A stretch of DNA of 64,000 nucleotides from an uncultured Pelagibacteraceae bacterium (GTDB lineage: Bacteria > Pseudomonadota > Alphaproteobacteria > Pelagibacterales > AG-422-B15): the NCBI GenBank assembly GCA_902518415.1, contig CABYGA010000001.1, positions 19,356-83,355 of the forward strand, given 5' to 3'. How positions within the stretch are numbered: position 1 is the stretch's first letter; the number at the start of each line of letters is the position of its first letter. The position numbers were made by a program, and so were the translations under genes. Below are positions 6,089 through 44,002 of the stretch, one piece after another. The notes under the pieces were generated by a model. That model was not told the origin of the DNA. It saw only the letters and a list, made by a program, of their open reading frames with translations, and did no database searches.

Positions 6089-6102
6089 AACAAAATTATA
6101 GG

Positions 6103-6420
6103 TTAATCGCCATCTACTTGAACAGAAGTACTGTTTTTTGAATTTAATTTTAGCCTTAATTCTTTTCCTGTCTTAAATCTTGGAATAAACTTTTCCTCAA
6201 CTTGAACTGCTTCACCAGTCCTTGGATTTCTCCCTGTTCTCTCTTTTCTGTGTTGAACTGAGAATGCACCGAATCCTCTCAACTCTACTCTCTTTCCCTC
6301 TGCTAAGGACTGAGTAATTTCATTAAAAATTGTATTAACAATTCTTTCTACATCTCTAATAAAAAGGTGAGGATTAGATTCAGTGATATTTTGAATAAGT
6401 TTTGATTTTATCAAGCTCAT
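6103..6420 (-). CDS. ihfB: integration host factor beta subunit (HU/IHF family)
   Basis: 105 aa with [42 protein letters not shown], matching the IHF-beta arm region. The ihfB-rpsA-cmk neighbourhood is conserved. Confidence 0.82.
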
Positions 6421-6474
6421 ATAATAATTATATGTTATTGAGTATTAATGTAAATGGTTGAATGTAAAGAATAT

Positions 6475-8172
6475 TTAGTCTTCTTTTTTATCTCTGCCTA
6501 AAGCCTTGCCTAAAATGGCACCTAATGAAGCCCCTGAGTCTTTCGAGCCATACTTTTCCATTGCTTCACGTTCAGTAGTTTCTTCCATAGCACGCACCGA
6601 TAAACTTATTTTATAACTTGAGTGATCGATATTTGTAATTGATGCATCGAGCTTATCATTTTTTGCCCACCTGTCAGGTCGGGCATCAGATTTTCTAAGA
6701 GCCAACTCATTTCTTTTTATAACAGTTAATGGGCCATTTTCCCCAACACGAACCTTTAAGCCAAAATCGCCGGTTTCAACAACATTACAAGTTACAATAT
6801 CACCTAGTTTCTTACCTTGTAGTTCATCAAATGGATTGCCATCAACCTCTCTAATAGAGAGAGAAACTTTGTCATTTTCATTTGTAATAATTTTAGCCTT
6901 AATACTGTCGCCCACTTTATACTTTTTTATCTCCTCTTTAGGATCTGAATCCCAAGAAAGATCTTTGCTAAATATTGCTCCATCTATCTCACCCTCAAGG
7001 TTACAGAAGAGAATACCATCCTTAATATTCGTTATATTTGTCTCCATTATGCTTCCAATTGGGTTATCTTCGTTAAATTTTTTCCATGGATTAGTTGTTA
7101 ACTGCTTAATTCCAAGACTTAATCGTCTTTTTTCATGATCTATTTCCAGTATCTGACATTCTACAGCTTGGGATCTAGCATAAAGGTTTCCGGGTTTAGA
7201 ATTCTGTCTTTGACTCCATGTCAGCATATCCTTATGACACAGACCTTCAACTCCATTTTCAATCTCAATGAAAATACCGTAATCAGTTACGTTAGTTACT
7301 ACACCTTTAACTTTATCATCAACATTAAATTTTTCTTTAACTTGAAGCCAAGGATCATCTTCAAGTTGTTTCATGCCAACCGAAACACGATTTTTATCTG
7401 GATCAACTTTTATAATCTTTACTTTTACTTGTTGATCTATTTTAAGAACTTCAGAGGGATGACCGATCCTTTTATATGTTATATCACTACTATGAAGCAA
7501 AGAATCATATCCACCTAAATCAACAAAAGCTCCGTAATCAGTAATGGCCTTTATTTTGCCCTCGACTACATCTTCAAGTTTTAGTTGTAAGAATCTTTCT
7601 TCTCTTACTTCTTTATGCATTTCTTCTAAAACAGCTCTTCGGCTTACAACAATGTTATTTCTTTTTAGATCCATTTTTAAGATTTTGAATTTTTGTGGAA
7701 CATCAATTAAATGACTAATATCTCTTACTGGCCTTGTATCAATTTGACTGCCAGGTAAAAATGCTGTAACGCCAATTTCGCATGACAATCCACCTTTTAC
7801 TTTCCCTGTGATAACACCCTCAACTAGCTCGCCTGCCTCAAAAGACTTTTCAATTTCAGCCCAAATTTCTTTTGATTTAGCTTTAGAACGAGAAAGAATA
7901 CAATCGCCGTTATGATTTTCTATTTTATCTAAATAGACGTCAATTTCATCACCAACTTCAAGATCTTTTTGATCTTTTCGAAATGCAAACTCTCTTTTAG
8001 AAATTCTACCCTCTACTTTTGCGCCGATATCAACTATTACAACCTCATCTTCAATTTCTGCTATTGTACCTTTAATTATAGTACCTTCTTTTAGTTTTGA
8101 ATTATTAATTGATTCAGCAAGTATCGAGTCGAACTCTGTTAATGTATCGTTGTTAATAGACTCTTGATTCAT
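6475..8172 (-). CDS. rpsA: 30S ribosomal protein S1
   Basis: 565 aa made of repeated S1 OB-fold domains (recurrent G.V..I...G.FV.. pattern). Lies in the cmk-rpsA context. Confidence 0.93.
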   Translation of the reverse strand: MNQESINNDTLTEFDSILAESINNSKLKEGTIIKGTIAEIEDEVVIVDIGAKVEGRISKREFAFRKDQKDLEVGDEIDVYLDKIENHNGDCILSRSKAKSKEIWAEIEKSFEAGELVEGVITGKVKGGLSCEIGVTAFLPGSQIDTRPVRDISHLIDVPQKFKILKMDLKRNNIVVSRRAVLEEMHKEVREERFLQLKLEDVVEGKIKAITDYGAFVDLGGYDSLLHSSDITYKRIGHPSEVLKIDQQVKVKIIKVDPDKNRVSVGMKQLEDDPWLQVKEKFNVDDKVKGVVTNVTDYGIFIEIENGVEGLCHKDMLTWSQRQNSKPGNLYARSQAVECQILEIDHEKRRLSLGIKQLTTNPWKKFNEDNPIGSIMETNITNIKDGILFCNLEGEIDGAIFSKDLSWDSDPKEEIKKYKVGDSIKAKIITNENDKVSLSIREVDGNPFDELQGKKLGDIVTCNVVETGDFGLKVRVGENGPLTVIKRNELALRKSDARPDRWAKNDKLDASITNIDHSSYKISLSVRAMEETTEREAMEKYGSKDSGASLGAILGKALGRDKKED

Positions 8173-8177
8173 AAATT

Positions 8178-8813
8178 TTAGACTTCTAAAATAATCTTTT
8201 TTAGTGCATTAAAAGCCTGTTCTATATCAATATAACTGGTATCTAGCAACACTGAATTTGACGCTGGCATTAAGGGGGCTATTTTTCTTGTTAAATCGTT
8301 TTTATCTCGAGCATTAATTTCACTTAAAATCGTTTTATACCTTGCTTTTTTACCATTTTTTACGATTTGTTCGTATCTTCTTTTAGCTCTTATCTTGGCG
8401 TCTGCCCACAAAAATATTTTGTAATCTGCATTAGGAAAAATGACTGTTGCAATATCTCTTCCTTCAATAATAGAAAATTTACTTCGATTACAGTAATTTT
8501 TTGGAAATTCTCTTTGGAACTTGATAAGCTTGTTTCTAAGTTCTTTCTTTGCTGAAATTAGTGAAGATAGTGTATCAACTTCACTTGAATAAAGATTCCC
8601 TGATTCTAAATTGTTCAATTCTAGAGAAGAAACACATTTTAAAATATCTTTAATATTATTTGGATCAACTTTTTTTTTGATTATTTCAAAAGCAATTGCT
8701 CTATATAATCTGCCGCTGAATAAAATTGGTGAATTATACTTTTTTGATAATTTTTTTGCTAGTGTTGACTTTCCTACTGAGGCAGGACCATCTATGGCAA
8801 TAATTTTTACCAT
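8178..8813 (-). CDS. cmk: cytidylate kinase
   Basis: 211 aa with P-loop IAIDGPASVGKST. Confidence 0.9.
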   Translation of the reverse strand: MVKIIAIDGPASVGKSTLAKKLSKKYNSPILFSGRLYRAIAFEIIKKKVDPNNIKDILKCVSSLELNNLESGNLYSSEVDTLSSLISAKKELRNKLIKFQREFPKNYCNRSKFSIIEGRDIATVIFPNADYKIFLWADAKIRAKRRYEQIVKNGKKARYKTILSEINARDKNDLTRKIAPLMPASNSVLLDTSYIDIEQAFNALKKIILEV

Positions 8814-10105
8814 TAATTATACTCAGCTAACTCGTTAAGATGATTTTTGAAATTTGGATAGCTTATTGATATACACGACTCATTATCAATAACTAGTTTA
8901 TTGTCATATAGTAAACTTAAGATTGCAAATGACATTGCTATTCGATGGTCACCGTATGTCTTGATTCTTTTTTCTTTAGTGATTTTTATTTTTTTTGATC
9001 CCTCAATATATATATTATCGCTTTTGCAAGTCACTTTAAATCCAACTTTCGAAAGATTGCTAGTTATACTTTTTATTCTATCACTTTCTTTGTGTCTAAG
9101 CTCTGACAACCCTCTCATAATTGTCAAACCCTTTGCTTGAGATGCTGCAATAGAGAGTATTGGATATTCATCTATCAAATAAGGAGATAAAGATGATTTA
9201 ATTTTAACTCCCTTAAGTATACTATGCGACACCTTAATCTCACCCACATCTTCACCTGCCGTAGTTTTAGTTTTTTTTATTTTAATTTTACCACCCATGT
9301 TCTTAAGAACTTCGATAAAAGCAATTCTAGTTTTATTTAGAGCTATATTCTTAAGAATGATTTCAGATTTTGGAATGATTAGAGCACCTACTATAAAAAA
9401 AGCTGCACTAGAAGGATCACTTGCTATAGAAATATTTTTTGGTTTTATTTCATAAGGACCATTAAGTTCAATTGATGTTGAATTTTTATTTAGAATCTTT
9501 TTCTTATATTTTATTTTTAGATAACTCATTAGCCTTTCTGTATGGTCACGTGTATTTCTTCTTTCAATTACTGTAGTCTTACCCCTTAAATTTAGAGCTG
9601 AAAGTAATAAGGCAGATTTTACTTGTGCCGAAGCTTTTTGCATGACATGTTTCATAGGAACTAAATTTACATCTCCATCAATATGTAGTGGCAAAAAGTC
9701 TTTGTTAGTAAGTACAATTTCTGCACCCATTTTTTCTAAGAATATTGATAGCCTCGACATTGAACGATTACTCAATGAATGATCGCCAATAAAGGTACAT
9801 CTTATTGGATTTGAAGATACTGCTCCCATCATTAAACGAGAAGTTGTCCCACTATTACCGCAGTCAAGAGCATGAGAGGGTTGTATGTAACCTCCAGTTC
9901 CATTACCTTTTACAATCCAATTATTTTGTTTTTTATAAATTTTAATACCTAACTCTCTGAGAATATTAAGTGTTCGCATAACATCATCTGACTCTAGTAA
10001 ATTTGATATTTTTACCTGTCCTGTGCATAGGGACGCAAAAATTAGAGCTCTGTGTGAAATAGACTTATCTCCAGATATTTTGATGGAACCTTTTAATTTA
10101 AGCAC
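8813..10105 (-). CDS. aroA: 3-phosphoshikimate 1-carboxyvinyltransferase (EPSP synthase)
   Basis: 430 aa with N-terminal SGDKSISHRALIFA and the EPSP-synthase two-domain length. Overlaps cmk by 1 nt. Confidence 0.92.
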   Translation of the reverse strand: MLKLKGSIKISGDKSISHRALIFASLCTGQVKISNLLESDDVMRTLNILRELGIKIYKKQNNWIVKGNGTGGYIQPSHALDCGNSGTTSRLMMGAVSSNPIRCTFIGDHSLSNRSMSRLSIFLEKMGAEIVLTNKDFLPLHIDGDVNLVPMKHVMQKASAQVKSALLLSALNLRGKTTVIERRNTRDHTERLMSYLKIKYKKKILNKNSTSIELNGPYEIKPKNISIASDPSSAAFFIVGALIIPKSEIILKNIALNKTRIAFIEVLKNMGGKIKIKKTKTTAGEDVGEIKVSHSILKGVKIKSSLSPYLIDEYPILSIAASQAKGLTIMRGLSELRHKESDRIKSITSNLSKVGFKVTCKSDNIYIEGSKKIKITKEKRIKTYGDHRIAMSFAILSLLYDNKLVIDNESCISISYPNFKNHLNELAEYN

Positions 10106-10206
10106 TTTTTATATTGTCAATTTAATAAGTTAGGGTATTGTTGAATATTACTGTATTTTATTTAAATTGCCAAAATTTTAACCATTAAATTAATTAGAGA
10201 TCAAAT

Positions 10207-10575
10207 ATGCCAAAACCAGAGTTTGGAAAAAAAGTAATTTGTAATAACTGTGAAGCAAAATTTTATGATCTTAATCGAAAGCCCGCTATCTGCCCACATT
10301 GTGGCACCGAATATGTAGAGCCAACTAATGAAGTCCTAACAACATCTGCCAAACAAGTATTTGTAGATCAAGTAGATATAGTTACTGATGATAATCTAGT
10401 TGGAAGTGATGCTACTGAGTCAATCGCTGAAGATGCTGAAATTGAACTTGAAGAGCAAATAGATGACGACACTATTAGTCTTGAAGACTCTGAAGCAGAA
10501 GACGGAGAAATTTCCAGTGATGTTGATATAGAATTAGACGGCAGTGAATCTACAGAAGACATTGATAGGGAATAA
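10207..10575 (+). CDS. FYDLN_acid (TIGR02300-type) zinc-ribbon protein with acidic tail
   Basis: CNNCEAKFYDLNRKPAICPHCG zinc ribbon with the FYDLN motif, followed by a long D/E-rich C-terminus. Confidence 0.7.
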   Translation: MPKPEFGKKVICNNCEAKFYDLNRKPAICPHCGTEYVEPTNEVLTTSAKQVFVDQVDIVTDDNLVGSDATESIAEDAEIELEEQIDDDTISLEDSEAEDGEISSDVDIELDGSESTEDIDRE

Positions 10576-10578
10576 TTG

Positions 10579-10654
10579 GGGGCTGTAGCTCAGCTGGGAG
10601 AGCATCAGCATGGCATGTTGAGGGTCACCGGTTCGATCCCGGTCAGCTCCACCA
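10579..10654 (+). tRNA. tRNA-Ala (anticodon GGC)
   Basis: Hand-folded 76-nt cloverleaf. Acceptor is GGGGCTG/CAGCTCC with the G3:U70 Ala identity pair. Anticodon stem is TCAGC/GTTGA with loop AT-GGC-AT. T-loop is GGTTCGATCC. CCA is encoded. Confidence 0.9.
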
Positions 10655-11407
10655 TTAATATTTGAATGCGTCCCCTAGGTAAAACTTCCTTGCCTCTTTG
10701 TTGCCAAGAATTTTATCACTGGTTCCATGAGCAATAATTTCACCATTAAAAAGAAGGTAACTGTAATCGCTAATATCAAGTACTTCTCTAACTTGGTGAT
10801 CAGTAATTATAACTGATATCCCTTTTTTCTTTAGTCTATTAATTTCAGATTTAATATCATTAATTGAGATTGGATCTAGAGCAGAAAAAGGTTCATCAAA
10901 TAAAACATATGAAGGATTTGTACCAAGTAGTCTGGCACATTCACATTTACGTCTCTCCCCACCAGACAATTGATGAGGCATAGCATTTCTCAAGTGAGTT
11001 AAATTAAATTCTGCCAATAACTCTTCAAGTCTGTTTACTCTTTGATCAAGGTTAAGATTAGTGGTTTCTAAAATAGCCATTATATTGTCTTCAACACTCA
11101 ACCCTCTAAAGATACTTGGTTGTTGAGGCAAATAACCTAACCCTGCCTGCGCTCTTTTCCACATAGGCAGTGTTGTAATATCATTATTGTTTAATTTAAT
11201 CTCACCACTATCACAAACTATAAGTCCCATTATACAATATAATGCAGTACTCTTACCAGCACCATTTGGTCCAAGTAGGCCAATAACTTTTCCCTTTTCA
11301 ACTTTAAGAGAAATGTCCCTTACTATTTGCTTCCCAGAAAGTGATTTTCTTAAGTTATTAACTTCAAGCCCAGTATTTGATGAAATTAATTTTGGTTTTG
11401 TAGTCAT
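10655..11407 (-). CDS. lptB: LPS export ABC transporter ATP-binding protein
   Basis: Walker A GPNGAGKST and signature LSGGERRK. Directly downstream of lptC-lptA. Confidence 0.9.
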   Translation of the reverse strand: MTTKPKLISSNTGLEVNNLRKSLSGKQIVRDISLKVEKGKVIGLLGPNGAGKSTALYCIMGLIVCDSGEIKLNNNDITTLPMWKRAQAGLGYLPQQPSIFRGLSVEDNIMAILETTNLNLDQRVNRLEELLAEFNLTHLRNAMPHQLSGGERRKCECARLLGTNPSYVLFDEPFSALDPISINDIKSEINRLKKKGISVIITDHQVREVLDISDYSYLLFNGEIIAHGTSDKILGNKEARKFYLGDAFKY

Positions 11408-12382: not shown

Positions 12383-13337
12383 ATCGAATGCAGTCATGAA
12401 TATGGATAATACCAATTGGTTTTTTTTCTTTAAAATTATTAACAACAAATAAACATGTAATTTTATTTGAGTTCATTTTTTGTAGTGTATTAATCACTAA
12501 TTCATCCTTACATATAAGCATTGGATTGGGGGACATAATTTCTTTAACATTTACATCTAGGAGAGCCTTTTTTATATGCCTTCTTAAATCTCCATCGGTA
12601 ATGATTCCAATAAGTGTATTCTTTTTATTCTTTACAGCTACATGACCAAGAGATTTTTTTGTCATTTCAATTATAACAGACTCCATTGATGCGTTTTCTT
12701 TAACAATAGGCATCTTTTTTCCAGTATGCATTATATCTTCAACTTGCAGCATATTCGCACCCAAGGCCCCTCCTGGATGAATTTTTTTGTAATCAGAAAG
12801 CTTAAAATTTTTAACTTTCATCAGAGATACACAGATTGCATCTCCTAAAATCAATGATAGCGTAGTTGAAGTTGTAGGGGCAAGCCCTATTGAACATGCT
12901 TCTTTTGAATTTGGAATTAATAATGGAATATCACATGATTTATATAGAGTACTTTTTGCATTGGATGTGATTCCTATAACAAAAACTTTATTTTTTTTTG
13001 CGAAATCTAATAAAGCTCTAAATTCCTCACTCTTTCCAGAATTAGATATAATTATTATGGCATCATTTTTAGCAATTATCCCTAAATCGCCATGACTCAT
13101 ATCTGTTGGAGAGCAATACTGAGAGAGCGTACCCGTTGAACTCATTGTGCTTGAAATTTTACTGGCGATATGACCAGATTTTCCCACACCTGTAATTATT
13201 ACCTTACCCTTAATTTTTGCTAGTTTGCTGATTGCTTTGGCAAAATCTGAATTGATTGATTTAAACAGTTTTTTAGCCCCAGATATTTCTGTTTCTATAA
13301 CTGATTTTCCGTAACTTTTAATTTTATTTGTGCTCAT
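12372..13337 (-). CDS. kdsD: arabinose-5-phosphate isomerase (SIS + tandem CBS)
   Basis: SIS motif GVGKSGHIASK and a C-terminal CBS pair; 321 aa. Confidence 0.88.
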   Translation of the reverse strand: MSTNKIKSYGKSVIETEISGAKKLFKSINSDFAKAISKLAKIKGKVIITGVGKSGHIASKISSTMSSTGTLSQYCSPTDMSHGDLGIIAKNDAIIIISNSGKSEEFRALLDFAKKNKVFVIGITSNAKSTLYKSCDIPLLIPNSKEACSIGLAPTTSTTLSLILGDAICVSLMKVKNFKLSDYKKIHPGGALGANMLQVEDIMHTGKKMPIVKENASMESVIIEMTKKSLGHVAVKNKKNTLIGIITDGDLRRHIKKALLDVNVKEIMSPNPMLICKDELVINTLQKMNSNKITCLFVVNNFKEKKPIGIIHIHDCIRYVN

Positions 13338-34053: not shown

Positions 34054-35853
34054 ATGACTGGAACCAAAAATATCAGAAACTTCTCAATTATTGCGCATAT
34101 TGATCATGGTAAATCTACGCTCGCAGATAGATTAATACAATTTTGCGGTGGTCTATCAGAACGTGAGATGAAGTCTCAAGTACTTGACTCAATGGATATC
34201 GAGCGGGAAAGAGGGATTACTATTAAAGCACAGACAGTCCAATTAAAGTACAATGCCAAGGACGATGAAATCTATACATTAAATATCATAGACACTCCAG
34301 GTCATGTTGATTTTAGCTATGAAGTTAACCGCTCTCTTTCAGCTTGTGAAGGTTCACTTCTTGTTGTTGATGCAAGTCAAGGCGTAGAAGCTCAAACACT
34401 AGCAAATTTATACCAAGCAGTAGAAAATGATCATGTAATCATTCCCGTATTAAATAAGATTGATTTACCAGCAGCGGATCCTGAGAGAGTAAAAGGACAA
34501 ATTGAGGATATTCTTGGAATTGATACAAGTAATGTATTAGAAATTTCTGCAAAGTCTGGAATAGGTATTGAAGATGTGCTTGAAACTATTGTAAATGATC
34601 TCCCAGCTCCCATAGGCAGTGTAACTGAACCTCTGAAAGCATTGCTTGTTGATAGTTGGTATGACGCTTACTTAGGAGTTGTTGTTTTGGTAAGAGTTAT
34701 TAATGGCACATTAAAAAAAGGTATGGAAGTAAGATTTCATCAAACTGACACCAAGCATTTAATTGAGAGAATTGGATGCTTTACCCCCAAGATGATTATC
34801 AATGAAGAGATTAAGACAGGTGAACTTGGATTTATTACTGCTGCAATTAAAGAGGTTTCTCAAACAAAAGTAGGAGATACTATTATATTATCTAATGATA
34901 AAAAAACACAGCCATTACCCGGATTTAAACCCAGTCAACCAGTAGTATTTTGTGGTCTTTTTCCAACTAATGCAGCAGATTTTAAATTCTTAAAAGATGC
35001 TCTTGCAAAATTAAAGCTTAATGATTCAAGCTTTCATTATGAGCAAGAAACCTCAGCTGCATTAGGCATGGGATTTAGGTGCGGTTTCTTAGGGCTACTT
35101 CACCTTGAGATTATTGTTGAAAGATTGGATAGAGAATTTGATTTAGATTTAATCACGACAGCCCCGAGTGTAATTTACGACATAGTACTTACTGATGAAA
35201 GCAAAATTGAGCTGCATAATCCTGCTGATATGCCTGAGATAATGAAAATCAAAACAATTTCTGAGCCCTGGATTAAAGCAACGATAATATGCCCAGATGA
35301 ATATTTAGGTAGTATCATTTCACTTTGTGAGGACAAACGAGGTATCCAGAATGAACTTACATATTCAGGGTCAAGAGTAATACTTGCTTATAAGCTACCC
35401 CTCAATGAAATTGTTTTTGATTTTTATGACAAACTAAAATCAATATCAAGTGGGTATGCAAGTTTTGATTATGAAATTGATCAGTATATGGAAAGTGATC
35501 TTGTTCGTTTAAGTATACTAGTTAATGATGAGCCTGTTGATGCCTTATCAATTATTGTTCATAGGAACTTTTCTGAAAAAAAGGGTAGAGCCGTATGTGA
35601 AAAACTCAAGGAACTGATTCCTAGACATCAGTTTCATATACCTATTCAAGCAGCAATAGGTGGCAAAATAATTGCTCGAGAAACTGTTCGTGGGTACAGA
35701 AAAAATGTCATTGATCGGATTCATGGTGGTGGTGCTACGGATAGAAAAAGAAAACTACTTGATAAGCAAAAGAAGGGTAAGCAAAGACTTAGAACTTACG
35801 GAAAAGTTGATATTCCTCAAGAAGCATTTATTGCTGCTTTGAAGGTTGAATAA
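34054..35853 (+). CDS. lepA: elongation factor 4
   Basis: GTPase motifs [22 protein letters not shown] and the LepA C-terminal domain; 599 aa. Confidence 0.95.
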
Positions 35854-35943
35854 GGAAAGGTGGCCGAGTGGTTGAAGGCGCACGCTTGGAAAGCGTGTAT
35901 GCGGGTGACCGTATCGTGGGTTCGAATCCCATCCTTTCCGCCA
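35854..35943 (+). tRNA. tRNA-Ser (anticodon GGA), class II with long variable arm
   Basis: Hand-folded. Acceptor is GGAAAGG/CCTTTCC. Anticodon stem is CACGC/GCGTG with loop TT-GGA-AA. It has a long variable arm, T-loop GGTTCGAATCC, and an encoded CCA. It starts at the base after the lepA stop. Confidence 0.92.
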
Positions 35944-35990
35944 TTTTACTCTAAATACTGTTAAAAATATTTCTGCTAAGTTTCTTTTTG

Positions 35991-36009
35991 ACCGCACTTT
36001 GACCGCGGT
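35991..36009 (+). repeat. 8-mer pair with 11-bp period (ACCGCACT-ttg-ACCGCGGT), candidate recombinase arm site
   Basis: Read directly. Lies 48 nt after the tRNA-Ser 3' end. Related to the pairs at 36609 and 39763. Confidence 0.4.
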
Positions 36010-36022
36010 ATAAAGTTCATTT

Positions 36023-36592
36023 ATGGGAAATTCACTTAAAGAGAAGATCATACCACTAACAAAAAATACTCTGGTTTTTTTTGCTATATTCATTTTTCTA
36101 ACTTGGTTACCAGATATTGATAGCATTATTCCACTTCTATATCATCGTGATATGCTAACACATAGCGCCATAATACCTTTTCTAGCACTTTTATACTTAA
36201 CAAGATTTAAATATATATCACCGATTATGATTGCGGCGTTATTTCTGTGCTTTGCTATTCATTTGAGTGCAGATATGTTCCCAAAAGGTTGGAGGGGTTT
36301 TGCTTTATTGCATTTCCCTGTGTTTGGTTTTGCTTTGCCTGGAATGTTAAGCTTTTTGTGGCTATTAGCCAATGTAGTAATCTGTATATTTTTTGCGCAC
36401 AAAATTCTTTTTAAGGGAGACTCAATATTAGTCTCAAAAAGATTCTTCTTTATAATTTCTATTGTACTATCAATTTTATACTTTTTATTTAATGAGCTGC
36501 CTAGTGGAAATGGTCAAACTATCTATTTGATTTTAATTATTGGCCTTACACTTTTTGGTATCAATCGATACGGAGAGAATTATATGAAGTGA
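36023..36592 (+). CDS. membrane-bound metal-dependent hydrolase-like protein (YdjM/DUF457-like)
   Basis: 189 aa, polytopic. LPDIDSIIPLLYHRDMLTHS and AIHLSAD resemble the DUF457 LPDxD...HRxxTHS / HLxxD motifs. Confidence 0.5.
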   Translation: MGNSLKEKIIPLTKNTLVFFAIFIFLTWLPDIDSIIPLLYHRDMLTHSAIIPFLALLYLTRFKYISPIMIAALFLCFAIHLSADMFPKGWRGFALLHFPVFGFALPGMLSFLWLLANVVICIFFAHKILFKGDSILVSKRFFFIISIVLSILYFLFNELPSGNGQTIYLILIIGLTLFGINRYGENYMK

Positions 36593-36608
36593 GCCCTTAA
36601 TCGTGGCT

Positions 36609-36627
36609 ACCGCACTTTTACCGCACT
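36609..36627 (+). repeat. 8-mer pair with 11-bp period (ACCGCACT-ttt-ACCGCACT), candidate recombinase arm site
   Basis: Read directly. Begins 100 nt upstream of tRNA-fragment copy 2. Homologous to the 39763 pair, which begins 98 nt upstream of copy 3. Confidence 0.4.
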
Positions 36628-36675
36628 CACCTGAAGCAATCCAAAAAAACAAGTATTAAAATCCAAGATTTACTT

Positions 36676-36766
36676 AGAAAAATTATCCTCTAATCTTGGA
36701 CTCATGAATTGGAAAGCGTGTATGCGGGTGACCGTATCGTGGGTTCGAATCCCATCCTTTCCGCCA
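36676..36766 (+). repeat. att-like repeat copy 2: 33-nt flank plus 58-nt tRNA-Ser 3' fragment
   Basis: 36709-36766 is 58/58 identical to 35886-35943. The flank 36676-36708 matches 39828-39860 at 30/33. Confidence 0.9.
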
Positions 36767-36793
36767 AACTGCTTAATGAACTTCTAATTCCAA

Positions 36794-37162
36794 TTAATTT
36801 TCAAATTTTATCTCTATCTTATCAAAGTAACCATAAATTACTCCATTTTCTGTAGAGTGACAGCTGTCAATTCTAAAATTTATTTCTTTAGATCCTCCAT
36901 TATTAAGAAGTGCTGAAAGTATCATCTCTCTACCCTTAGCGGTAGGCTCATAGAAAATTAAATCACTTCCCTCGCCCAAACAATTATGATTTTTGTCAAG
37001 GTAGACATATATTCTCTCATCCCATCCAAGCTGGATTCTGTCAACTTTACTTTCATGCCAAAATCCCAATTGACCAGTTTGATTTGACCCATCATACGAA
37101 TATGAATAGCTAAACATATTTAAAGAAATTAGTATTATAATCAATTTTTTTTTAAGAGACAT
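36794..37162 (-). CDS. small secreted protein, unknown function
   Basis: 122 aa with an N-terminal signal-like segment (KKKLIIILISLNMFSYS) and two Cys. Lies 50 nt downstream of the 820-aa gene on the same strand. Confidence 0.5.
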   Translation of the reverse strand: MSLKKKLIIILISLNMFSYSYSYDGSNQTGQLGFWHESKVDRIQLGWDERIYVYLDKNHNCLGEGSDLIFYEPTAKGREMILSALLNNGGSKEINFRIDSCHSTENGVIYGYFDKIEIKFEN

Positions 37163-37212
37163 ATTGGAAAATTTAATCCTTTCCTGTTATCAGATCAATT
37201 TGGAAGAAAAAA

Positions 37213-39675
37213 TTAATTTGATTTTCCTGTCAACCAATCCATTGGAGTAATATATTTTATTAATTCTTTTAAGTCTTCAGCAGTACATTCGTTGCAACCT
37301 CCTTTAGGCATCATCGCCCCATTTCCTGAAAATGCAAGAGATAGAAGAATTACACGATCTTGTGGAAATTTTGCCCATGACTCAAGATCTCCCCTTGTTG
37401 GTGCGCCAAATGATCCATTTTCATGGCACCCAGCACAATTTTGTGTATACAATCTTTCTGTTCTCATCATTACTGTTTCATCAAGAGTTGCTTCACTTAT
37501 TATTTTATTTTTTTCCATTGCTTTTTTCTGCGCTTCAACTATTTCCTGTCCTGGTTTTTTTTGTGAGGCTTCCTTTGTACTTAAAAGTAGAACATAAGCG
37601 ACTTCTCCATCGTTGAAGCCAAGTGCTAGTGATCCATCATAATCAACTGAAACTGTCTTCATATAACCAAAATTAGGAGAAAATTGTATAACCTCATAAT
37701 CATTAGAATCAGGACTGTCATAAACTACTAATCTATAATTTTTAGAGTCGGCGATATATATTTTACCATCTGGACCAATGTCTATCTCATGAGGATAATT
37801 CAATACTCCATTTCCAAATGTATACTGCTTTTCACCTTCGAAGTTTAGAACGCCAATCCAATTTCTTACTCTAGCTACGACATATATAAGTTCTCTTTCA
37901 TGATCAACCTTTAAATAGTATGGTTCTAACCAATCAAATTCATCTCCCTCAGAATTTACTGATAACCATTTTGTTTTTCCCGAAACAGTATCTAACGCCT
38001 GTATTCTTGAATTGATATGTTCCGAAACTATCATCATGTCATCTACAAAATCTAATCCAAATGGAGAATTAAATTTTCCAAGTTGACTCGTAGGTTTTTC
38101 TATCGCATCACCGTAGGTTCCCCAACTTTTTTCAAAATCTCCGGCAAGACTAAATTGTTCGATTCGATGATTACTTCCTTCAGCAATATATACACTCCCT
38201 TCATGTACTTGGACATCTGCTGGGGTCGTATAAATTTGCCCACTGTGAGTACCTCTTTCACCAAAACTATATAAAAATCTTCCAGATTTATCGAATACTT
38301 GAATTTTTGCATTGACACAATCAGTTATAAAAAGTGCATCTTTATAGAAAGCCGAACCGTATGGAAGTTGAAATTCCTCAGAATCATTTCCAATTTTCCC
38401 AAGAATAGAAATGGACTCAAACTTATCAAAATAGTCAATTCTTTCTTTATTCCATACCTGAATTTTTGAGTCCAAAAAAGTTAATCTAATGTTTGCAATA
38501 CATTGTTCCCCATCTTTTTGTTCAAACCTACCAATTAATTCAACTGCTTTTACTGTCCCAAACTTTTTTCTAAGCCTTATGCTGTATCCTCGACTGTCTG
38601 AGTCTAGTCTTGCAATCCCTGCATGTTTTAGTTCTTTAAATTTTAAGTTTAATAGTGACAAATTATTTTTGGCATTATTGATTCCGACTCCTAAATAAAT
38701 AGATTCTCCTTTGAATAAATCTTCATAATAAAAATCTTCATTTCTTAAGTGAAAATTTTCTTCAAAGCACAGTTGCGTATTTATATTGTCAAGCAGCATC
38801 GACTTTGCGTAATTAATTGACCGAGAAAGAGCCATTATTTCTGCGGAATTATATTTAATCTCGTCAGAAACTTTACTTAATTTTTTGGATAGGGTTATTA
38901 ATTCAGTTGATAAGCGAGGTATTGAGTTAATCGCTTCGATAGCAGTTGTTTCATACTTCGACTCTATTTTTTGCATTTCTTTAAACTCAGACTCAGATAT
39001 TATGATTTCTTTTTTTATATTATTTGGCGTCTGTAATTTTTGGACTTCATCATTATTTATTGATTTGTAAGGTGCTAATAAAATTAGTATATTCGCTTCA
39101 CACATGCCACTCTTACTTTGAAACTCGCCAATTAAATTAATATTCAAAAAAGAATCGTTTACGCGATTATATAATTTTAATTGAATAATTGAGTCTGATT
39201 TAGAGATTTCGAAGAGTCCATATGATTTTATCCCTTTGTGCCTTATATCCTTTAAAATTAAATCATTGATACCTACTCGACTATTAATTTTAAAATCAAT
39301 TAAATCGGAGTCATGTCTTTTCGCTAGATTAAAATCTTTATTTTGAAGTACTAATTTATTCTCATCACACTCAATAATTGCAGAATCTTTACCCAATTCT
39401 TTTTCAGCATATTTTATTTGATCAGTATAATTTGTGATCATTTCATAACTTCTCCTAAGCCTGTCTGATTCTTTTGAAAACTCTTCTTTTTTCTTGCTGA
39501 GTATTTTTTCTAAATTTTTTCTTTCATCATCAAATAATGACCAATTCGCAGTAGCATTTTTTTCATTCACATTAGAATATACATAGCCGACAGCTATTAT
39601 TATTGAAATGACCGTAGTGATTAACAGCAGATAAAATAAAAATTTATATTTTTTATAAAAATTTATCATGTACAT
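37213..39675 (-). CDS. membrane-anchored fusion protein: duplicated unknown module + NHL-repeat beta-propeller + cytochrome c5-type domain
   Basis: 820 aa. N-terminal TM (FLFYLLLITTVISIIIAVG). Coiled-coil-like segments. Two ~115-aa homologous modules (~aa 85-200 and 286-401). NHL blades (e.g. LNYPHEIDIGPDGKIYIADSKNYRLVVYD; FITDCVNAKIQVFDKSGRFLYSFG). C-terminal CAGCH heme motif followed by MMPKGGCNECTAEDLKELIKYI (c5-type Met ligand and Cys pair). Confidence 0.8.
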   Translation of the reverse strand: MYMINFYKKYKFLFYLLLITTVISIIIAVGYVYSNVNEKNATANWSLFDDERKNLEKILSKKKEEFSKESDRLRRSYEMITNYTDQIKYAEKELGKDSAIIECDENKLVLQNKDFNLAKRHDSDLIDFKINSRVGINDLILKDIRHKGIKSYGLFEISKSDSIIQLKLYNRVNDSFLNINLIGEFQSKSGMCEANILILLAPYKSINNDEVQKLQTPNNIKKEIIISESEFKEMQKIESKYETTAIEAINSIPRLSTELITLSKKLSKVSDEIKYNSAEIMALSRSINYAKSMLLDNINTQLCFEENFHLRNEDFYYEDLFKGESIYLGVGINNAKNNLSLLNLKFKELKHAGIARLDSDSRGYSIRLRKKFGTVKAVELIGRFEQKDGEQCIANIRLTFLDSKIQVWNKERIDYFDKFESISILGKIGNDSEEFQLPYGSAFYKDALFITDCVNAKIQVFDKSGRFLYSFGERGTHSGQIYTTPADVQVHEGSVYIAEGSNHRIEQFSLAGDFEKSWGTYGDAIEKPTSQLGKFNSPFGLDFVDDMMIVSEHINSRIQALDTVSGKTKWLSVNSEGDEFDWLEPYYLKVDHERELIYVVARVRNWIGVLNFEGEKQYTFGNGVLNYPHEIDIGPDGKIYIADSKNYRLVVYDSPDSNDYEVIQFSPNFGYMKTVSVDYDGSLALGFNDGEVAYVLLLSTKEASQKKPGQEIVEAQKKAMEKNKIISEATLDETVMMRTERLYTQNCAGCHENGSFGAPTRGDLESWAKFPQDRVILLSLAFSGNGAMMPKGGCNECTAEDLKELIKYITPMDWLTGKSN

Positions 39676-39762
39676 AAGAATATTATTTTAGATCCAAAAA
39701 GTCTATTATTTCTAAGTACTAAAAACATACAATTAGACCACTTCACTAATTCAATAATGCAA

Positions 39763-39781
39763 CTGCACTCTCACCATACTC
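39763..39781 (+). repeat. 8-mer pair with 11-bp period (ACTGCACT-ctc-ACCATACT), degenerate copy of the arm-site pair
   Basis: Aligns with 36609-36627 at 13 of 19 positions (20 of 26 over the wider 36610-36635 vs 39764-39789 stretch, including the shared downstream CACCT). It sits at the same distance from its tRNA fragment. Confidence 0.35.
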
Positions 39782-39827
39782 ACCTAAAATAATTTCTAAC
39801 TTCCCCAAATGTAATACCCCGTTTACC

Positions 39828-39918
39828 AGAAAAATTATCCTCTAATTTTAGGCTCATGAATTGGAAAGCGTGTATGCGGATGACCGTATCGTGGGTTCGA
39901 ATCCCATCCTTTCCGCCA
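39828..39918 (+). repeat. att-like repeat copy 3: 33-nt flank plus 58-nt tRNA-Ser 3' fragment
   Basis: 39861-39918 matches 35886-35943 at 57/58 (A instead of G at 39880). Confidence 0.9.
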
Positions 39919-40038
39919 AAATAAATTGATTTCAATTTTTTTAAAGCAAGAAATATTTCAATTGATAGGTTAAGTGTCATATATTTGTAGTAAAATTTGA
40001 TATTGAAAGAGCTAATATTTCTTGATAAAGAAAAAAGT

Positions 40039-40386
40039 ATGAAAAACATATTGCCAATAATACTCTTCGTCTTTTTTATTCCTCTCGCAGCATCATCAGC
40101 TACTTGGGAAAATTGGAAAAAAGAGACTACTGAAATTTCTGAGGGTATTAAACAAACCATAAAAACTTTTTCATCTGGTCGCACTGAAACCACATACGAG
40201 ATAAAAGTCAAAGTTAGGGGAAGAGATGTTTGGGTTGATGCCATTGAAATAAATGGCACCTATGAAATCTCTGAGAAAGGCGAGCAGCAAATCGAAAGAC
40301 AAGAGTCGGGCAATGTTACTGGTCAAAGTTCTGGTAGTGGAGGTAGTAGTGGCGGTAGTAGTGGCGGCAGTGGCGGCGGCTGTTAA
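40039..40386 (+). CDS. small secreted protein with C-terminal Gly/Ser repeat ending in Cys
   Basis: Start moved to the ATG at 40039 (MKNILPIILFVFFIPLAASSA signal peptide). The C-terminus is QSSGSGGSSGGSSGGSGGGC, encoded by a 12-nt-periodic repeat at 40327-40380. Confidence 0.55.
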   Translation: MKNILPIILFVFFIPLAASSATWENWKKETTEISEGIKQTIKTFSSGRTETTYEIKVKVRGRDVWVDAIEINGTYEISEKGEQQIERQESGNVTGQSSGSGGSSGGSSGGSGGGC

Positions 40387-41340
40387 TCAACTCTTACAAA
40401 CTTCAACCTCATTAATACTTTCATAATTTAAGCTTGATGTTTTAAAATGCCTTTTGTCACTAGATAAACGAAGCGAATCTTTCAATTCTCCAACAAGAAT
40501 TTTATCAAATATATTTAACAATCGCTGATCACAAGCAAATAAAAAAAATGGTTTTGCAACATTTTCATGTAATTTTTCATTATTCTCTTCATAACCCCAA
40601 TAAGGAGGATAAATAATTAACGTTTTTTTTGAATCAAAATTACTTAATACGTCTCTTATTTGATCAATTATTTTTGACATAGATAATTGAAGTTCCTCAT
40701 CATCTATGCTTAAGAATTGTTTAAGATTCGATTGTCTAACATCATTTGTGATTGTAAAAAATTTACCCTCAACCATTCCTTTAAGGATAATTAAATCATA
40801 GATAAATGGAGATTTTAAAACATCATAAATATTTTTTTCATTAAGAGGTACAAAATCTTCAACTTTCCATCCAGGTTGTATTCTAAAAATATCTGTTCCA
40901 TAATTAAAGCCTAATACTATATCACTTTTATAATTAATTTTGGTTTCATTCATATCTCTGAGTTTTTCAGTAACTTGAAAAGGACCATTATTCGGTGCAG
41001 CATATAGAACAAGATTTTTATTTGGAAAAATTTCAGCAATATCATGAATTGTATCAGAATCTTTACTTGACCAATCAATCCCTAGAATTTGACTATCACC
41101 AAAAACGTGAACTTTACTTGAGTCATGTTCAGAGTTGACATTTATTAACCTTGCACCGTTTTCATCAGTTTCTATATGTATTTCTCCATCTCCTTTACTA
41201 AAGCAAAACTTTAAAGTTTCAGGTAGATAAACAATTTTTCCATTAGAAGCGTAAGGAATAAAGCTGAAACACTCAGCATATGAATTACATGCTAAGATAA
41301 AAAATAGTATTAAAATTTTGTATAAATAACTTAATATCAT
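40387..41340 (-). CDS. secreted SGNH/GDSL-family hydrolase-like protein
   Basis: Signal peptide, block I VHVFGDSQILG, block III-like AAPNNG, and a C-terminal DKRH (DxxH); 317 aa. Confidence 0.6.
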   Translation of the reverse strand: MILSYLYKILILFFILACNSYAECFSFIPYASNGKIVYLPETLKFCFSKGDGEIHIETDENGARLINVNSEHDSSKVHVFGDSQILGIDWSSKDSDTIHDIAEIFPNKNLVLYAAPNNGPFQVTEKLRDMNETKINYKSDIVLGFNYGTDIFRIQPGWKVEDFVPLNEKNIYDVLKSPFIYDLIILKGMVEGKFFTITNDVRQSNLKQFLSIDDEELQLSMSKIIDQIRDVLSNFDSKKTLIIYPPYWGYEENNEKLHENVAKPFFLFACDQRLLNIFDKILVGELKDSLRLSSDKRHFKTSSLNYESINEVEVCKS

Positions 41341-41345
41341 AAGTA

Positions 41346-42119
41346 ATGTTCAAAATCGTAAATTTTAAAAAAAGAAATGTCAAAGGATTACCTTTACAAA
41401 AAGTTTGTTTAGACTTCGCATTAGCAGAATTTTCATCAGCTATCGAAATGCTATATGCAAGTAAAAAAGTTGATAATCCAAATTTAGCAATTGGATTTTT
41501 GAAGCATAGTTTAGACGAATATCGTCATACAAATTTTTTTAAAAAGCTAATTGTAGAAAGTGACAAATCTAATTCAAAAGAGGTGTTAAAATTTGTACCC
41601 CGTCTTGTTTATAGTAAAGGATTTATAAACGAAAATAGATTCTTGTTTGATAAAATGAAAATTAATGAGTTTTCTGTATTTATTGGAGTAAATGAGATGC
41701 AAGCTCTAAAAATATTTGAGAAGTTTAGAGACCAAAACTTACGATTAGAAGATAGTATCAAAAGAGAACTAGACAACATTATTAAAGAAGAAAGTGATCA
41801 TTCTTTAAATACTAGCAGCATTTTTATTAACAATTTATCCAACCTGATTATTGATGAAGAAAAGCATTCTAGACTTGCTTTACAATTTTCTAAAAAAAAC
41901 ATAAAAAAAATGAAATATAAATTATTGTACTTTAAATATTTGATATCTAATAAACTGAGACATTTTGTTGCGAATTCTGAATTCACAAAAAAAATTTTAT
42001 CATATATTATTGTATTTTTTTTGATACTGCTTACTTTTCCACTTAAATTTGCATTAAATACGAAGACCATATCAAATGGTTTCCATTTAGATAAAAACGA
42101 TGCAAATTTAATTTTATGA
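41346..42119 (+). CDS. ferritin-like di-iron carboxylate protein with C-terminal TM helix
   Basis: ExxH motifs (LDEYRH; EESDH; DEEKH) spaced as in di-iron four-helix bundles. TM segment ILSYIIVFFLILLTFPL; 257 aa. Confidence 0.5.
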   Translation: MFKIVNFKKRNVKGLPLQKVCLDFALAEFSSAIEMLYASKKVDNPNLAIGFLKHSLDEYRHTNFFKKLIVESDKSNSKEVLKFVPRLVYSKGFINENRFLFDKMKINEFSVFIGVNEMQALKIFEKFRDQNLRLEDSIKRELDNIIKEESDHSLNTSSIFINNLSNLIIDEEKHSRLALQFSKKNIKKMKYKLLYFKYLISNKLRHFVANSEFTKKILSYIIVFFLILLTFPLKFALNTKTISNGFHLDKNDANLIL

Positions 42120-43834
42120 AAAAATATATAATTGGTATCTCAGCTTACTACCACGAAAGCTCTATAACTTTACTATCAGAAAATAAATTACTGGATTACA
42201 TTAAAGAAGAAGAAGTAACTCGAGTTAAAGGTGACTATAAATTTCCATTTCAAACACTTAAACTTATAATTAATAAATATAAAATCAAAAATTCTCAAAT
42301 TGAAGCAATTGTTTTTTATGAGAAACCTTTTCTTGGCTGGTCTGCAATAACTTATAATGCCTTATCTAGTCCAATTAAAAAATGGAAAATGGTACTTAAT
42401 CAATTTCAAAAGTTTTGGACAGGGTCCCTAAGCTTTTCTAGTGATCTATTAAAAATAATAAAAATTCCTAAAAAAAAAATATTCTATTGTCCCCATCACA
42501 TAAGCCATGCTTTAAATGGTATATATTTCACTAGTAATCAAAAAAAGAATTTTTTAATATTTGTTATTGATGGGATTGGCGATGGTGAAACGATGTCCAT
42601 TTTTAAAAAAATTAATAACGAGATTATTACAGAAAAGAAATGTGTTTATCCGCATTCTATAGGATTGTTTTATAGCACATTTACTCAATTCTTAGGCTTC
42701 AATGTTAATGAAGGAGAAAGTAAAGTTATGGGATTAGCATCATATGGAACACCTATTTTTAAAGATTTCATCCTAAACAAAATCATAAGTATAAAAAATG
42801 ATGAAATACTTATTGATGAGACTTGGTTTTCTTTTACTTCAGAACCTGAGAGATCTTACTCAGAAAAATTTGAAAATAAGTTTGGTAAACCTGGAAAATT
42901 AATAGATTATTCTGATTTTAAAAGTGACGAATTTGCAAGACTTGCAAATATAGCTGCGTCTGTTCAATCCGCAACAGAGGAACTAATTAAAATATTAATA
43001 GCTATTTTTGTAAAAAAAACATCTATCAAAAATATTATTTTCTCTGGTGGTGTGGGTTTAAATTCAAGAGTTATGCAAATAGTCAGTGAAATGAATGAAA
43101 TAGAAGAATTAACCGTACCAGCATCACCTGGAGATGCTGGCTCATCTTTGGGTGCAGCTATTTATGGAAATATGGTTTTATCTAATTTTAAATTTCCTGA
43201 ATTTGAATTGTATCCAGGTAAATTTTATAATGAAAATATACAATCTAATATATTTAAGAGATTATTTAAAAAAATTGAGTTAAATAATGGAATAGAGGAC
43301 GCTGTAGCTGACTTAATTCAAAAAGGGAATATAATTGCAACATTTATTAATCAACGTGAATTTGGTCCTAGAGCTTTAGGCTCAAGATCACTTATTTGCG
43401 CAGGTAATCAAAATAAAGTAGTCGAAAAATTAAATATAGAGATAAAAAAAAGGGAAAAGTTTAGACCTTTAGCGCCAATGATAAGAGATGAAAACTTCGA
43501 TAAATATTTTTCATGTGCAAATAATTCTAAACACAATTTACTCTGGATGGGAATGACAGTTGATGTAAAAGAGGAAATGATTAATAAATACCCTAAAGCT
43601 GTTCATATAGATCATACGTCAAGAGTACAAATTATTAATAAGTATAATGATTTATTTTATTCGTTACTTTTAAAGTTAGAGCAAAAAGATGTTGATATAT
43701 TGATTAATACGTCATTTAACATTGCAGGTGACCCCATGGTTTTTGATTTCGTTGACTGTTATACAAATATGAAAAGAATGGATATACAATATTTACTTGC
43801 TGATAATGGGCTTTATAAAATTAATAGTATATGA
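42116..43834 (+). CDS. NodU/CmcH-family carbamoyltransferase
   Basis: 572 aa. N-terminus IIGISAYYHESSITLL, CPHHISHALNG, GGVGLNS, FGPRALGSRSLI, all hallmarks of the family. Its ATG overlaps the upstream stop (ATGA). Confidence 0.88.
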   Translation: MKKYIIGISAYYHESSITLLSENKLLDYIKEEEVTRVKGDYKFPFQTLKLIINKYKIKNSQIEAIVFYEKPFLGWSAITYNALSSPIKKWKMVLNQFQKFWTGSLSFSSDLLKIIKIPKKKIFYCPHHISHALNGIYFTSNQKKNFLIFVIDGIGDGETMSIFKKINNEIITEKKCVYPHSIGLFYSTFTQFLGFNVNEGESKVMGLASYGTPIFKDFILNKIISIKNDEILIDETWFSFTSEPERSYSEKFENKFGKPGKLIDYSDFKSDEFARLANIAASVQSATEELIKILIAIFVKKTSIKNIIFSGGVGLNSRVMQIVSEMNEIEELTVPASPGDAGSSLGAAIYGNMVLSNFKFPEFELYPGKFYNENIQSNIFKRLFKKIELNNGIEDAVADLIQKGNIIATFINQREFGPRALGSRSLICAGNQNKVVEKLNIEIKKREKFRPLAPMIRDENFDKYFSCANNSKHNLLWMGMTVDVKEEMINKYPKAVHIDHTSRVQIINKYNDLFYSLLLKLEQKDVDILINTSFNIAGDPMVFDFVDCYTNMKRMDIQYLLADNGLYKINSI

Positions 43835-43983
43835 TTAGGATTATTGAAATATTCTTGCATGTCAAAAAAAGACTTTCTCTGTTTCAGAGTATAATTATTC
43901 TAATTATTTCAATAATTGCAATTTTGGCCTTATTAATCAAAGCTCTCACATTTTTCTTGCCATTCACTTATGTAGCTTTTTAA
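43831..43983 (+). CDS. 50-aa hydrophobic micro-ORF translationally coupled to the carbamoyltransferase
   Basis: ATG at 43831 overlaps the carbamoyltransferase TGA (ATGA). Encodes MIRIIEIFLHVKKRLSLFQSIIILIISIIAILALLIKALTFFLPFTYVAF, with one clear TM. Below the ORF-track size cut-off. Confidence 0.3.
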   Translation: MIRIIEIFLHVKKRLSLFQSIIILIISIIAILALLIKALTFFLPFTYVAF

Positions 43984-44002
43984 TTAATTTTAACTGTGTA
44001 TG

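Follow-up and report, generated by a model that had tools for sequence, protein, structure and literature searches.

An 820-amino-acid (aa) membrane-anchored protein and a 122-aa secreted protein, encoded next to one another in an uncultured Pelagibacteraceae bacterium, make up a periplasmic module of SAR11 that is rare, is encoded by two genes, and is horizontally mobile. The stretch in which we found them (hereafter the window) comprises 64,000 nucleotides of contig CABYGA010000001.1 (assembly GCA_902518415.1, positions 19,356 to 83,355), and the larger gene occupies positions 37213–39675 of its minus strand. From the N-terminus, the 820-aa protein consists of a transmembrane (TM) anchor, two units of coiled coil and beta module, an NHL propeller, a linker, and a cytochrome c5 domain. 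This architecture is an undescribed combination of two known domains with a new domain and a new partner family, and a literature search returned no paper on an NHL protein in SAR11 and none on NHL-cytochrome fusions. A preliminary description, read by a model from the sequence alone, had divided the protein into four parts, namely the anchor, a duplicated module of which each copy follows a coiled-coil-like stretch, the propeller, and a linker with a terminal heme domain, and all of the structural elements that it listed are present in the minus-strand open reading frame (ORF).

A single N-terminal helix anchors the protein in the inner membrane, and a stalk of two units, each a heptad-periodic helix followed by a Cys-pair beta module, carries the distal domains out into the periplasm. 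The signal-anchor TM helix (aa ~9–36; 39568–39651, on the minus strand like every other feature of the protein) is helical in the AlphaFold2 (AF2) model and is the only segment whose Kyte-Doolittle hydropathy exceeds 1.6. Three Lys and no acidic residue lie ahead of it, which argues for an N-in topology with the remainder of the protein in the periplasm, as had been supposed. Next comes the first heptad-periodic helix (aa ~37–93; 39397–39567), modelled as part of a continuous helix at aa 2–93; over aa 35–93 its a/d positions have a hydrophobic fraction of 0.62 vs 0.16, a value reached by 6 of 2000 composition-preserving shuffles. The second such helix (aa ~228–293; 38797–38994; helical at aa 245–293 in the model) reaches 0.89 vs 0.21, matched by none of 2000 shuffles; both stretches that the preliminary description had called coiled-coil-like thus have significant heptad periodicity. 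A flexible linker rich in K, E, Q, and A (aa 700–735; 37471–37578), recognised as such in the AF2 model, by its composition, and by its substitution rates, separates the propeller from the heme domain. The Cys residues stand at positions 103, 192, 303, 392, 453, 747, 750, 794, and 797. The full-length AF2 model is of moderate quality, with a predicted local distance difference test score (pLDDT) of 67, and a Pfam scan returned no match within aa 1–410.

Selection has acted unevenly along this chain. We estimated ratios of nonsynonymous to synonymous substitution (dN/dS) against three homologs by the Nei-Gojobori method, and since dS is near saturation for the distant pairs, it is the ranking that counts and not the absolute values: 0.08–0.10 for the propeller, 0.05–0.16 for the heme domain, 0.22–0.36 for the modules, and 0.4–0.8 for the linkers. 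The propeller and the heme domain, both subject to strong purifying selection, are the most conserved parts of the protein, and substitution is faster in the stalk; the low ratios argue that both distal domains are functional and that the stalk is the part freer to evolve. As an observation on the public record, the exact 820-aa sequence is absent from a collection of 15 billion proteins and from a gene-position index, where the tested neighbours on the same NCBI contig (100,813 bp) are all present; the gene may be uncalled there, or called with another start.

The stalk owes its bulk to a domain that has been duplicated. Copy 1 (aa 76–204; 39064–39450) contains the end of the first helix and a beta domain with Cys103 and Cys192, and copy 2 (aa 277–404; 38464–38847) contains one helix and an all-beta domain with Cys303 and Cys392. 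BLASTP of aa 41–230 against aa 231–430 gives 27% identity over 139 aa (E 9e-10), and hhalign of the two module profiles, each built from the copies in five family members, gives a probability of 98.4% (E 6.8e-15, 123 columns), which bears out the homology proposed earlier. The Cys pairs C103/C192 and C303/C392 were likewise read correctly, both Cys being invariant in all 14 complete copies (from nine proteins), and they probably form disulfides that staple the modules. An AF2 model of module 2, computed from a 15-copy alignment (pLDDT 83.6; predicted template-modelling score, pTM, 0.76), shows an N-terminal helix followed by an all-beta domain, ~125 aa in all. Searched with Foldseek, this model had no match below E 1e-3 in the PDB (best 3.5e-3, TM-score, the template-modelling score, at most 0.42) or in BFVD, and its weak matches are all Ig-like sandwiches (the dystroglycan juxtamembrane domain, cadherin, PKD, and BIG2). 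Across 15 module copies, Pfam matches with E up to 10 include no recurring family, and no PDB sequence was matched in a profile search. The module, which the preliminary description did not recognise, is an undescribed domain with no significant match among the Pfam families, PDB sequences, and solved folds searched.

Relatives of the module are few. When 1.84 billion representative proteins were searched with the module profile, eight came back, seven of them credible; the eighth, P0057 (1528 aa, repetitive, eukaryote-like), matches only profile positions 101–124 and was dismissed as spurious. Whenever the sequence of a member reaches past the module, the module is followed directly by the same NHL propeller. 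One of these proteins, P0056 (546 aa), lacks a cytochrome and consists of a TM anchor, a single module, and the propeller.

The propeller (aa 421–699; 37579–38415) matches Pfam NHL (PF01436) with 41.4 bits (cut-off 20) and the six-bladed propeller family DUF5128 with 23.5 bits (cut-off 22.9). In the AF2 model it has six four-stranded blades and is closed by strand 421–425, with pLDDT mostly between 66 and 91 and dips near aa 475 and 525, and the NHL-repeat propeller of the earlier reading is thereby secured. Its closest sequence matches are the TRIM-NHL proteins Thin (4e-27) and TRIM71 (5e-25), followed by TRIM2/3 and Brat (4e-27 to 1e-16 across the set), and TRIM-NHL crystal structures superpose on it with TM-scores of 0.75–0.83 (normalised to the target). 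The enzyme PAL, a peptidyl-alpha-hydroxyglycine alpha-amidating lyase, is far more distant (E 8e-7; TM-score 0.53, a value that reflects overall similarity only), and SOQ1 and PknD lie at a similar distance. Because the nearest relatives in both sequence and fold are TRIM-NHL propellers and PAL is so much weaker, the propeller is probably of the binding type and not enzyme-like.

This bears on the suggestion, made in the preliminary description, that the protein is a redox enzyme. On that account the propeller, perhaps with the small protein as a subunit, would oxidise or reduce a small molecule and the c5 domain would serve as the electron exit or entry to the respiratory chain, an arrangement comparable to quinohemoprotein dehydrogenases or cytochrome-fused nitrite reductases. 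In favour of this, class I cytochrome domains tethered at a C-terminus typically serve a catalytic domain, the heme domain here is strongly constrained, an NHL-fold enzyme (PAL) is detectable among the relatives of the propeller, and Cys453 in blade 1 is kept by every homolog, with or without heme. There is also a weak match to ScyF (NF035926, scytonemin NHL/PEP-CTERM), a periplasmic protein of an oxidative pigment pathway, but it scores 89.5 bits, far under the cut-off of 350, and the C-terminus of the 820-aa protein is a cytochrome and not PEP-CTERM. Moreover, the closest propellers are non-enzymatic binding propellers, no known redox cofactor motif was found in the propeller, and the heme-less paralogs retain both propeller and partner; we therefore judge a catalytic enzyme unlikely.

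The C-terminal domain (aa 736–815; 37231–37470) was described beforehand as a heme domain with CAGCH and a c5 signature, and the comparison with known cytochromes agrees. It matches Pfam Cytochrome_CBB3 (PF13442) at aa 738–809 with 43.1 bits (cut-off 27), and its nearest PDB sequences are cytochrome cA (5b6q, 2.6e-10) and cytochrome c5 (8smr, 7e-10; 1cc5, 8e-7). The alignments to 5b6q and 8smr match all three hallmarks: the CxxCH motif (CAGCH, aa 747–751; 37423–37437), the Met-ligand motif around Met788, where NGAMMPKGG aligns with GAMPPGG/PPKG, and the c5-specific CxxC pair, where C794-N-E-C797 aligns with CTDC and CADC. The residues of these motifs do not vary among five aligned homologs. 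A c551 match also appears, in a PDB entry that we take to be a nitrite-reductase complex; the relatives of the c5 domain are electron shuttles, cytochrome c5 and ScyA. We predict a c5-type mono-heme domain carrying every sequence hallmark of its class, which would bind heme covalently and transfer electrons. The class I mono-heme cytochromes (Azotobacter c5, 1cc5; 8smr; Shewanella cA, 5b6q; ScyA, 1kx2) have the same CxxCH, GAMxPKGG, and CxxC elements as the C-terminal 80 aa here, but c5 proteins are free shuttles of ~80 aa or are simply membrane-anchored, whereas this domain ends an 820-aa anchored multidomain protein. Of the redox fusion proposed in the preliminary description, the cytochrome part thus stands by its c5 hallmarks, and what does not stand is the heme domain as part of a conserved core: since P0056 keeps the module, the propeller, and the small partner without any cytochrome, the heme domain is probably a lineage-specific add-on outside that core.

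The second gene of the pair (36794–37162, minus strand) lies 50 nt downstream of the 820-aa gene in the same orientation and encodes the 122-aa partner, which carries a signal peptide. Promoter and terminator scans of the cassette scored no better than shuffles, so the case for an operon comes from spacing and co-orientation only. In an alignment of eight sequences, Cys61, Cys101, F34-W35-H36, and G46-W47-D48 are invariant; the family numbers 19 clusters among 5.8 billion proteins and has no relative in Pfam or the PDB. Wherever a neighbour can be identified, a homolog of the small protein adjoins one of the large gene, whichever of the two comes first and whether or not the heme domain is present, so that the co-occurrence raised as a check in the preliminary description is borne out at every such locus. 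The pair is seen in L081, L082, L084, L086, L087, L089–L093, and L096. At L083, L085, and L088 the genes upstream of the small partner are cut, as they are at L094, L095, and L097–L099; at L111 the cut gene upstream ends in a propeller and a c5 domain, and at L112 the small partner accompanies a frameshifted homolog of the large gene. For the heme-less P0056 the gene order is reversed, with a 134-aa homolog of the small protein encoded directly upstream (E 1e-46). The core unit is accordingly the module-propeller protein together with the small secreted protein.

The most distant relative of the small protein (L108, 4975–5319; 28% identity, both Cys kept) lies in a polysaccharide gene cluster, just upstream of a gene for an 1845-aa RHS/YD-shell/transglutaminase-core protein (5567–11104), which means that the family is not restricted to NHL partners. 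This neighbour raises the question of whether the pair could be a polymorphic-toxin-like effector with an accessory or immunity protein, the small protein being the chaperone or immunity factor. A two-gene mobile cassette would fit such a pair, as would the position of the distant relative directly upstream of the RHS/YD-shell protein, but the C-terminus of the 820-aa protein is a conserved cytochrome and its least variable part, the opposite of the variable tip of polymorphic toxins, and no secretion-system genes lie nearby. We regard a toxin system as very unlikely.

We tentatively favour a different function, in which the 820-aa protein is a stalked docking platform for its small partner, wired to respiratory c-type cytochromes; this is a plausible proposal that could well be wrong. 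The helices would oligomerise the protein and, together with the disulfide-stapled modules, would hold the propeller off the membrane, where it would offer a docking surface. The most probable occupant of that surface is the small partner, or else a ligand presented by it. In heme-bearing members, the c5 domain would shuttle electrons one at a time between the docked entity and the c-type cytochromes of respiration (bc1, soluble cytochrome c, oxidase). The function of the module-propeller protein and its partner would be independent of heme, and the heme domain would couple it to respiration in this lineage.

Several points weigh against this docking proposal. In the full-length AF2 model, pLDDT falls below 50 over the heme domain, which is unplaced relative to the propeller, and the existence of heme-less paralogs (P0056) means that redox chemistry may be peripheral. 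Gene linkage is the single line of evidence that suggests binding between partner and propeller, and the distant relative of the small protein adjoins an RHS/YD-repeat protein and not an NHL protein, so the small partner may be a more general accessory protein.

Precedents for an NHL propeller that works with a redox partner are found, as we see it, in thioredoxin-like (Trx) fusions to NHL and in NHL proteins encoded beside cytochromes. SOQ1 and NHLRC2, both detectable relatives, fuse a redox-active thioredoxin-like domain to an NHL propeller, much as redox and NHL domains are combined here, and SOQ1 further resembles the present protein in having a membrane anchor and in exposing its domains to the lumen, a compartment equivalent to the periplasm. 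In those proteins, however, a dithiol Trx fold lies N-terminal of the propeller, whereas here a one-electron c-type heme lies C-terminal of it and the N-terminal modules are unrelated. NHL proteins encoded in multiheme-cytochrome clusters have been proposed to scaffold or stabilise cytochromes. UetH/UetI of Ca. Tenderia, DFE_0451/DFE_0463 of Desulfovibrio ferrophilus, and Gmet_0556 are NHL propellers genetically coupled to envelope c-type cytochromes, as in the present case, but they are separate genes beside multiheme cytochromes in metal- or electrode-respiring bacteria, whereas here propeller and a single c5 heme share one polypeptide in an aerobic oligotroph. The TRIM-NHL proteins (Thin/TRIM32, TRIM71/LIN-41, TRIM2/3, Brat), which give the best propeller matches, are cytosolic and bind RNA or protein; the present protein is bacterial and periplasmic, and the 820-aa sequence has no RING or B-box match, its N-terminus being the TM helix and the novel modules. 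The order of coiled coil, filamin, and NHL in LIN-41 loosely parallels that of coiled coil, beta-sandwich, and NHL here, but a filamin match is not established: a superposition on the Lin41 filamin-NHL chain gave a TM-score of 0.60, about what the propeller alone would give, and was rejected.

PknD, which uses an NHL-type propeller as an extracytoplasmic sensor domain, recalls the other function named in the preliminary description, that of a periplasmic redox sensor signalling to the cytoplasm. Heme domains are common sensor inputs, but only ~11 residues precede the TM helix, leaving no room for a cytoplasmic output domain; there is no kinase, cyclase, or DNA-binding output in the protein and no regulator gene in the cassette. 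For want of any cytoplasmic domain we reject the sensor, which appears highly improbable.

The tRNA-Ser(gga) gene (35854–35943, plus strand), right after lepA, is the integration target, and its 3' part occurs three times: in the tRNA itself (35853–35945), at 36676–36768, and at 39828–39920; the 25-mer core of the repeat has three exact occurrences in the window where none is expected. The two downstream copies (both on the plus strand) are att-type repeats in which a conserved cassette end of ~36–45 nt is joined to 57 nt of the tRNA-Ser 3' half. The first forms the right end of a neighbouring unit, islet A, and the left boundary of the cassette islet, and the second forms the right boundary of this 3,152-bp islet, which holds both genes; they are 96% identical over 93 nt, including ~36 nt outside the tRNA. 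The whole strain-specific insertion spans 8,055 bp (35948–44002). In it, the cassette islet lies between islet A, a unit of 0.8 kb that encodes a 189-aa membrane protein, and a low-GC segment. The SAR11 genomes L001 and L003, the closest to this one (93–94% nucleotide identity in the flanks), have ~210 bp in place of the 8,055 bp. The neighbouring LepA is 97–98% identical to that of three Pelagibacteraceae single-cell genomes, which places the host in SAR11. None of the island proteins occurs at the tRNA-Ser site in 18 SAR11 species representatives, and no ORF of the 8-kb insertion contains an integrase domain. The earlier view of the gene as att-bounded mobile cargo is therefore upheld by the repeats and by the empty site in relatives; it needs amending in two respects: the islet belongs with other units to a larger insertion, at a hotspot of integration in SAR11, and it has no integrase.

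The same cassette end recurs on unrelated cargo. A second att copy lies 0.7–2.6 kb from the tRNA in four other genomes, each time with different cargo, and a ~45-nt non-tRNA end (GTTTACTTAGAAAAATTATCCTCTAATCTTGGACTCATGAATTG), fused to the 57-nt tRNA-Ser 3' half, is common to five islets (window 36608–36768 and 39760–39920; L006 ~12420–12579; L008 ~12995–13154; L009 ~12757–12916). Their identity to tRNA-Ser starts at the anticodon loop. The cargo comprises the 189-aa membrane protein, the 820- and 122-aa pair, a 139-aa protein, a lipoprotein-like 198-aa protein with small TM proteins, and a 214-aa protein, and an integrase is present in none of the five. They have the look of a family of cassettes that lack integrases and are stacked at a single hotspot in SAR11. 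In tRNA-targeting islands, such as the tycheposon-type islands of Prochlorococcus and those of the tRNA-anchored model for Pelagibacter, direct repeats of the tRNA 3' half likewise delimit cargo stacked beside an intact tRNA, at a hotspot that is empty in close relatives. The units here differ in being very small (0.8 and 3.2 kb), in lacking an integrase or mobility gene in or beside them, and in their ~45-nt non-tRNA end.

Outside the window the cassette is scarce. The 820-aa protein has no match in 185,579 GTDB species-representative genomes, and neither a relative of it nor a copy of the att 37-mer occurs in IMG/VR viral contigs; in the GenBank phage collection the only matches were generic tRNA-Ser-like ones, in phages of Ralstonia, Rhizobium, Bacillus, and Salmonella, and no pelagiphage was among them. 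JGI metagenomes yielded four true relatives. The gene pair turns up again in marine metagenomes, flanked by repeats and often close to surface-glycan genes. It lies directly beside lepA and tRNA-Ser in L094–L099 and between two tRNA-Ser-derived repeats in L081 and L089–L092, with one such copy at the end of L093. A tRNA-free context is found in L084, where the pair is flanked by 300-nt direct repeats (1012–1311 and 4718–5017; 84% identical) and adjoins methyltransferase and NeuB genes, and also in L083 and L085–L088. The L084 repeats are degraded fragments of an ORF with a serine-recombinase 'Recombinase' domain (PF07508, 27.8 bits, cut-off 21.1), and in this context the fragment occurs only in the flanking repeats. 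At L111 the pair adjoins a DegT/NeuB/glycosyltransferase island. We envisage that the pair moves as a small integrase-less cassette into tRNA-Ser and elsewhere into repeat-flanked sites at the edge of surface-glycan islands. A 2026 preprint has proposed tRNA-anchored cargo insertion for the Pelagibacter hypervariable region, together with independent islands elsewhere.

Two of these loci contain oddities of their own. At L112 (3590–5518; GC 38%), the homolog is divergent (37–42% identity) and comprises a module end, the propeller, and a cytochrome c domain. A frameshift interrupts it between the residues equivalent to 561 and 566, and the small partner and a carbamoyltransferase fragment then follow. 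It may be a pseudogene or a sequencing error. L082 (Logan SRR1587600, 3297 bp) has an identical 29-nt sequence at both ends, indicating a circular path or flanking repeats, and its large protein P0003 (887 aa) has an N-terminal extension of ~60 aa that reads like an in-frame fragment of another gene, followed by a lipoprotein-signal-like stretch (MFKAIYIIL...SC).

These contexts invite the view that the protein is an envelope or structural factor tied to hypervariable surface-glycan islands, for example a tether spanning the periplasm or a phage-exclusion factor, with the heme as an accessory such as a redox-state input. The cassette does repeatedly adjoin surface-polysaccharide genes (NeuB, methyltransferases, GT2, DegT, carbamoyltransferase), and surface-gene islands of this kind in Pelagibacter have been interpreted as phage-driven surface diversification (2026 preprint). 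The long stalk of coiled coil and beta-sandwich that evolves faster than the distal domains, and the existence of heme-less versions, would also suit such a role. Yet PADLOC defence models gave no matches for six island proteins (E up to 0.1), the protein is absent from viral contigs, the location may reflect nothing but shared integration hotspots, and the strong purifying selection on the heme domain argues for its importance. An envelope factor thus seems to us a doubtful alternative to the docking platform.

A broader version of the docking proposal can be sketched, although as a whole it is improbable: the pair would be an unrecognised periplasmic system whose heme form is an accessory respiratory branch of some SAR11 strains, in which a stalked, oligomeric platform keeps a partner or substrate at a distance from the inner membrane and supplies it with electrons, or removes them, via c5, and it would spread as an integrase-less cassette, with an att-type end of ~100 nt in common with other SAR11 cassettes, by integron-like or tycheposon-like shuffling. 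If such shuffling does take place, it would represent a gene-shuffling system in the ocean's most abundant bacterium; if the function is purely structural, the finding would extend the list of domains of unknown function only modestly. The genome of SAR11 is very small and streamlined, and functional differences between its strains and the acquisition of its genes are poorly understood. The cassette offers a clean example of flexible-genome cargo, with precise boundaries and an empty-site comparison, and its respiratory-type heme domain on an unusual scaffold could mean a strain-level difference in periplasmic redox capability. It also defines two new families, the Cys-pair module domain and the small secreted protein, both almost confined to marine AT-rich bacterioplankton. 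The ~45-nt end joined to a tRNA half on unrelated cargo provides a handle for finding the recombinase that moves SAR11 genes, and may be the more useful lead.

Finally, the surroundings of the cassette contain several features of minor interest. Two ORFs on the minus strand, 35755–36126 and 39780–40259, were discarded as genes, their conservation across SAR11 loci being that of tRNA and att sequence in a protein frame. The conserved core encodes, about 9 kb away, a membrane protein of the cytochrome b561 family (PF01292; 48577–49107, minus strand) that has no evident link to the cassette. Just outside the att repeat, a 129-aa ORF (39997–40386, plus strand) has a Gly/Ser-rich tail (…SSGSGGSSGGSSGGSGGGC) and a sub-threshold Aca2/YdiL-like match (E 0.0014). 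The low-GC segment in which it lies (39921–44002; 25–29% GC, no att copy at its right end) encodes a 317-aa secreted protein, whose VHVFGDSQILG resembles SGNH/GDSL block I and which has no Pfam match, a 257-aa weakly rubrerythrin-like protein, and a NodU/CmcH-type carbamoyltransferase, and the same trio of genes also flanks the cassette in the Tara contig L089.

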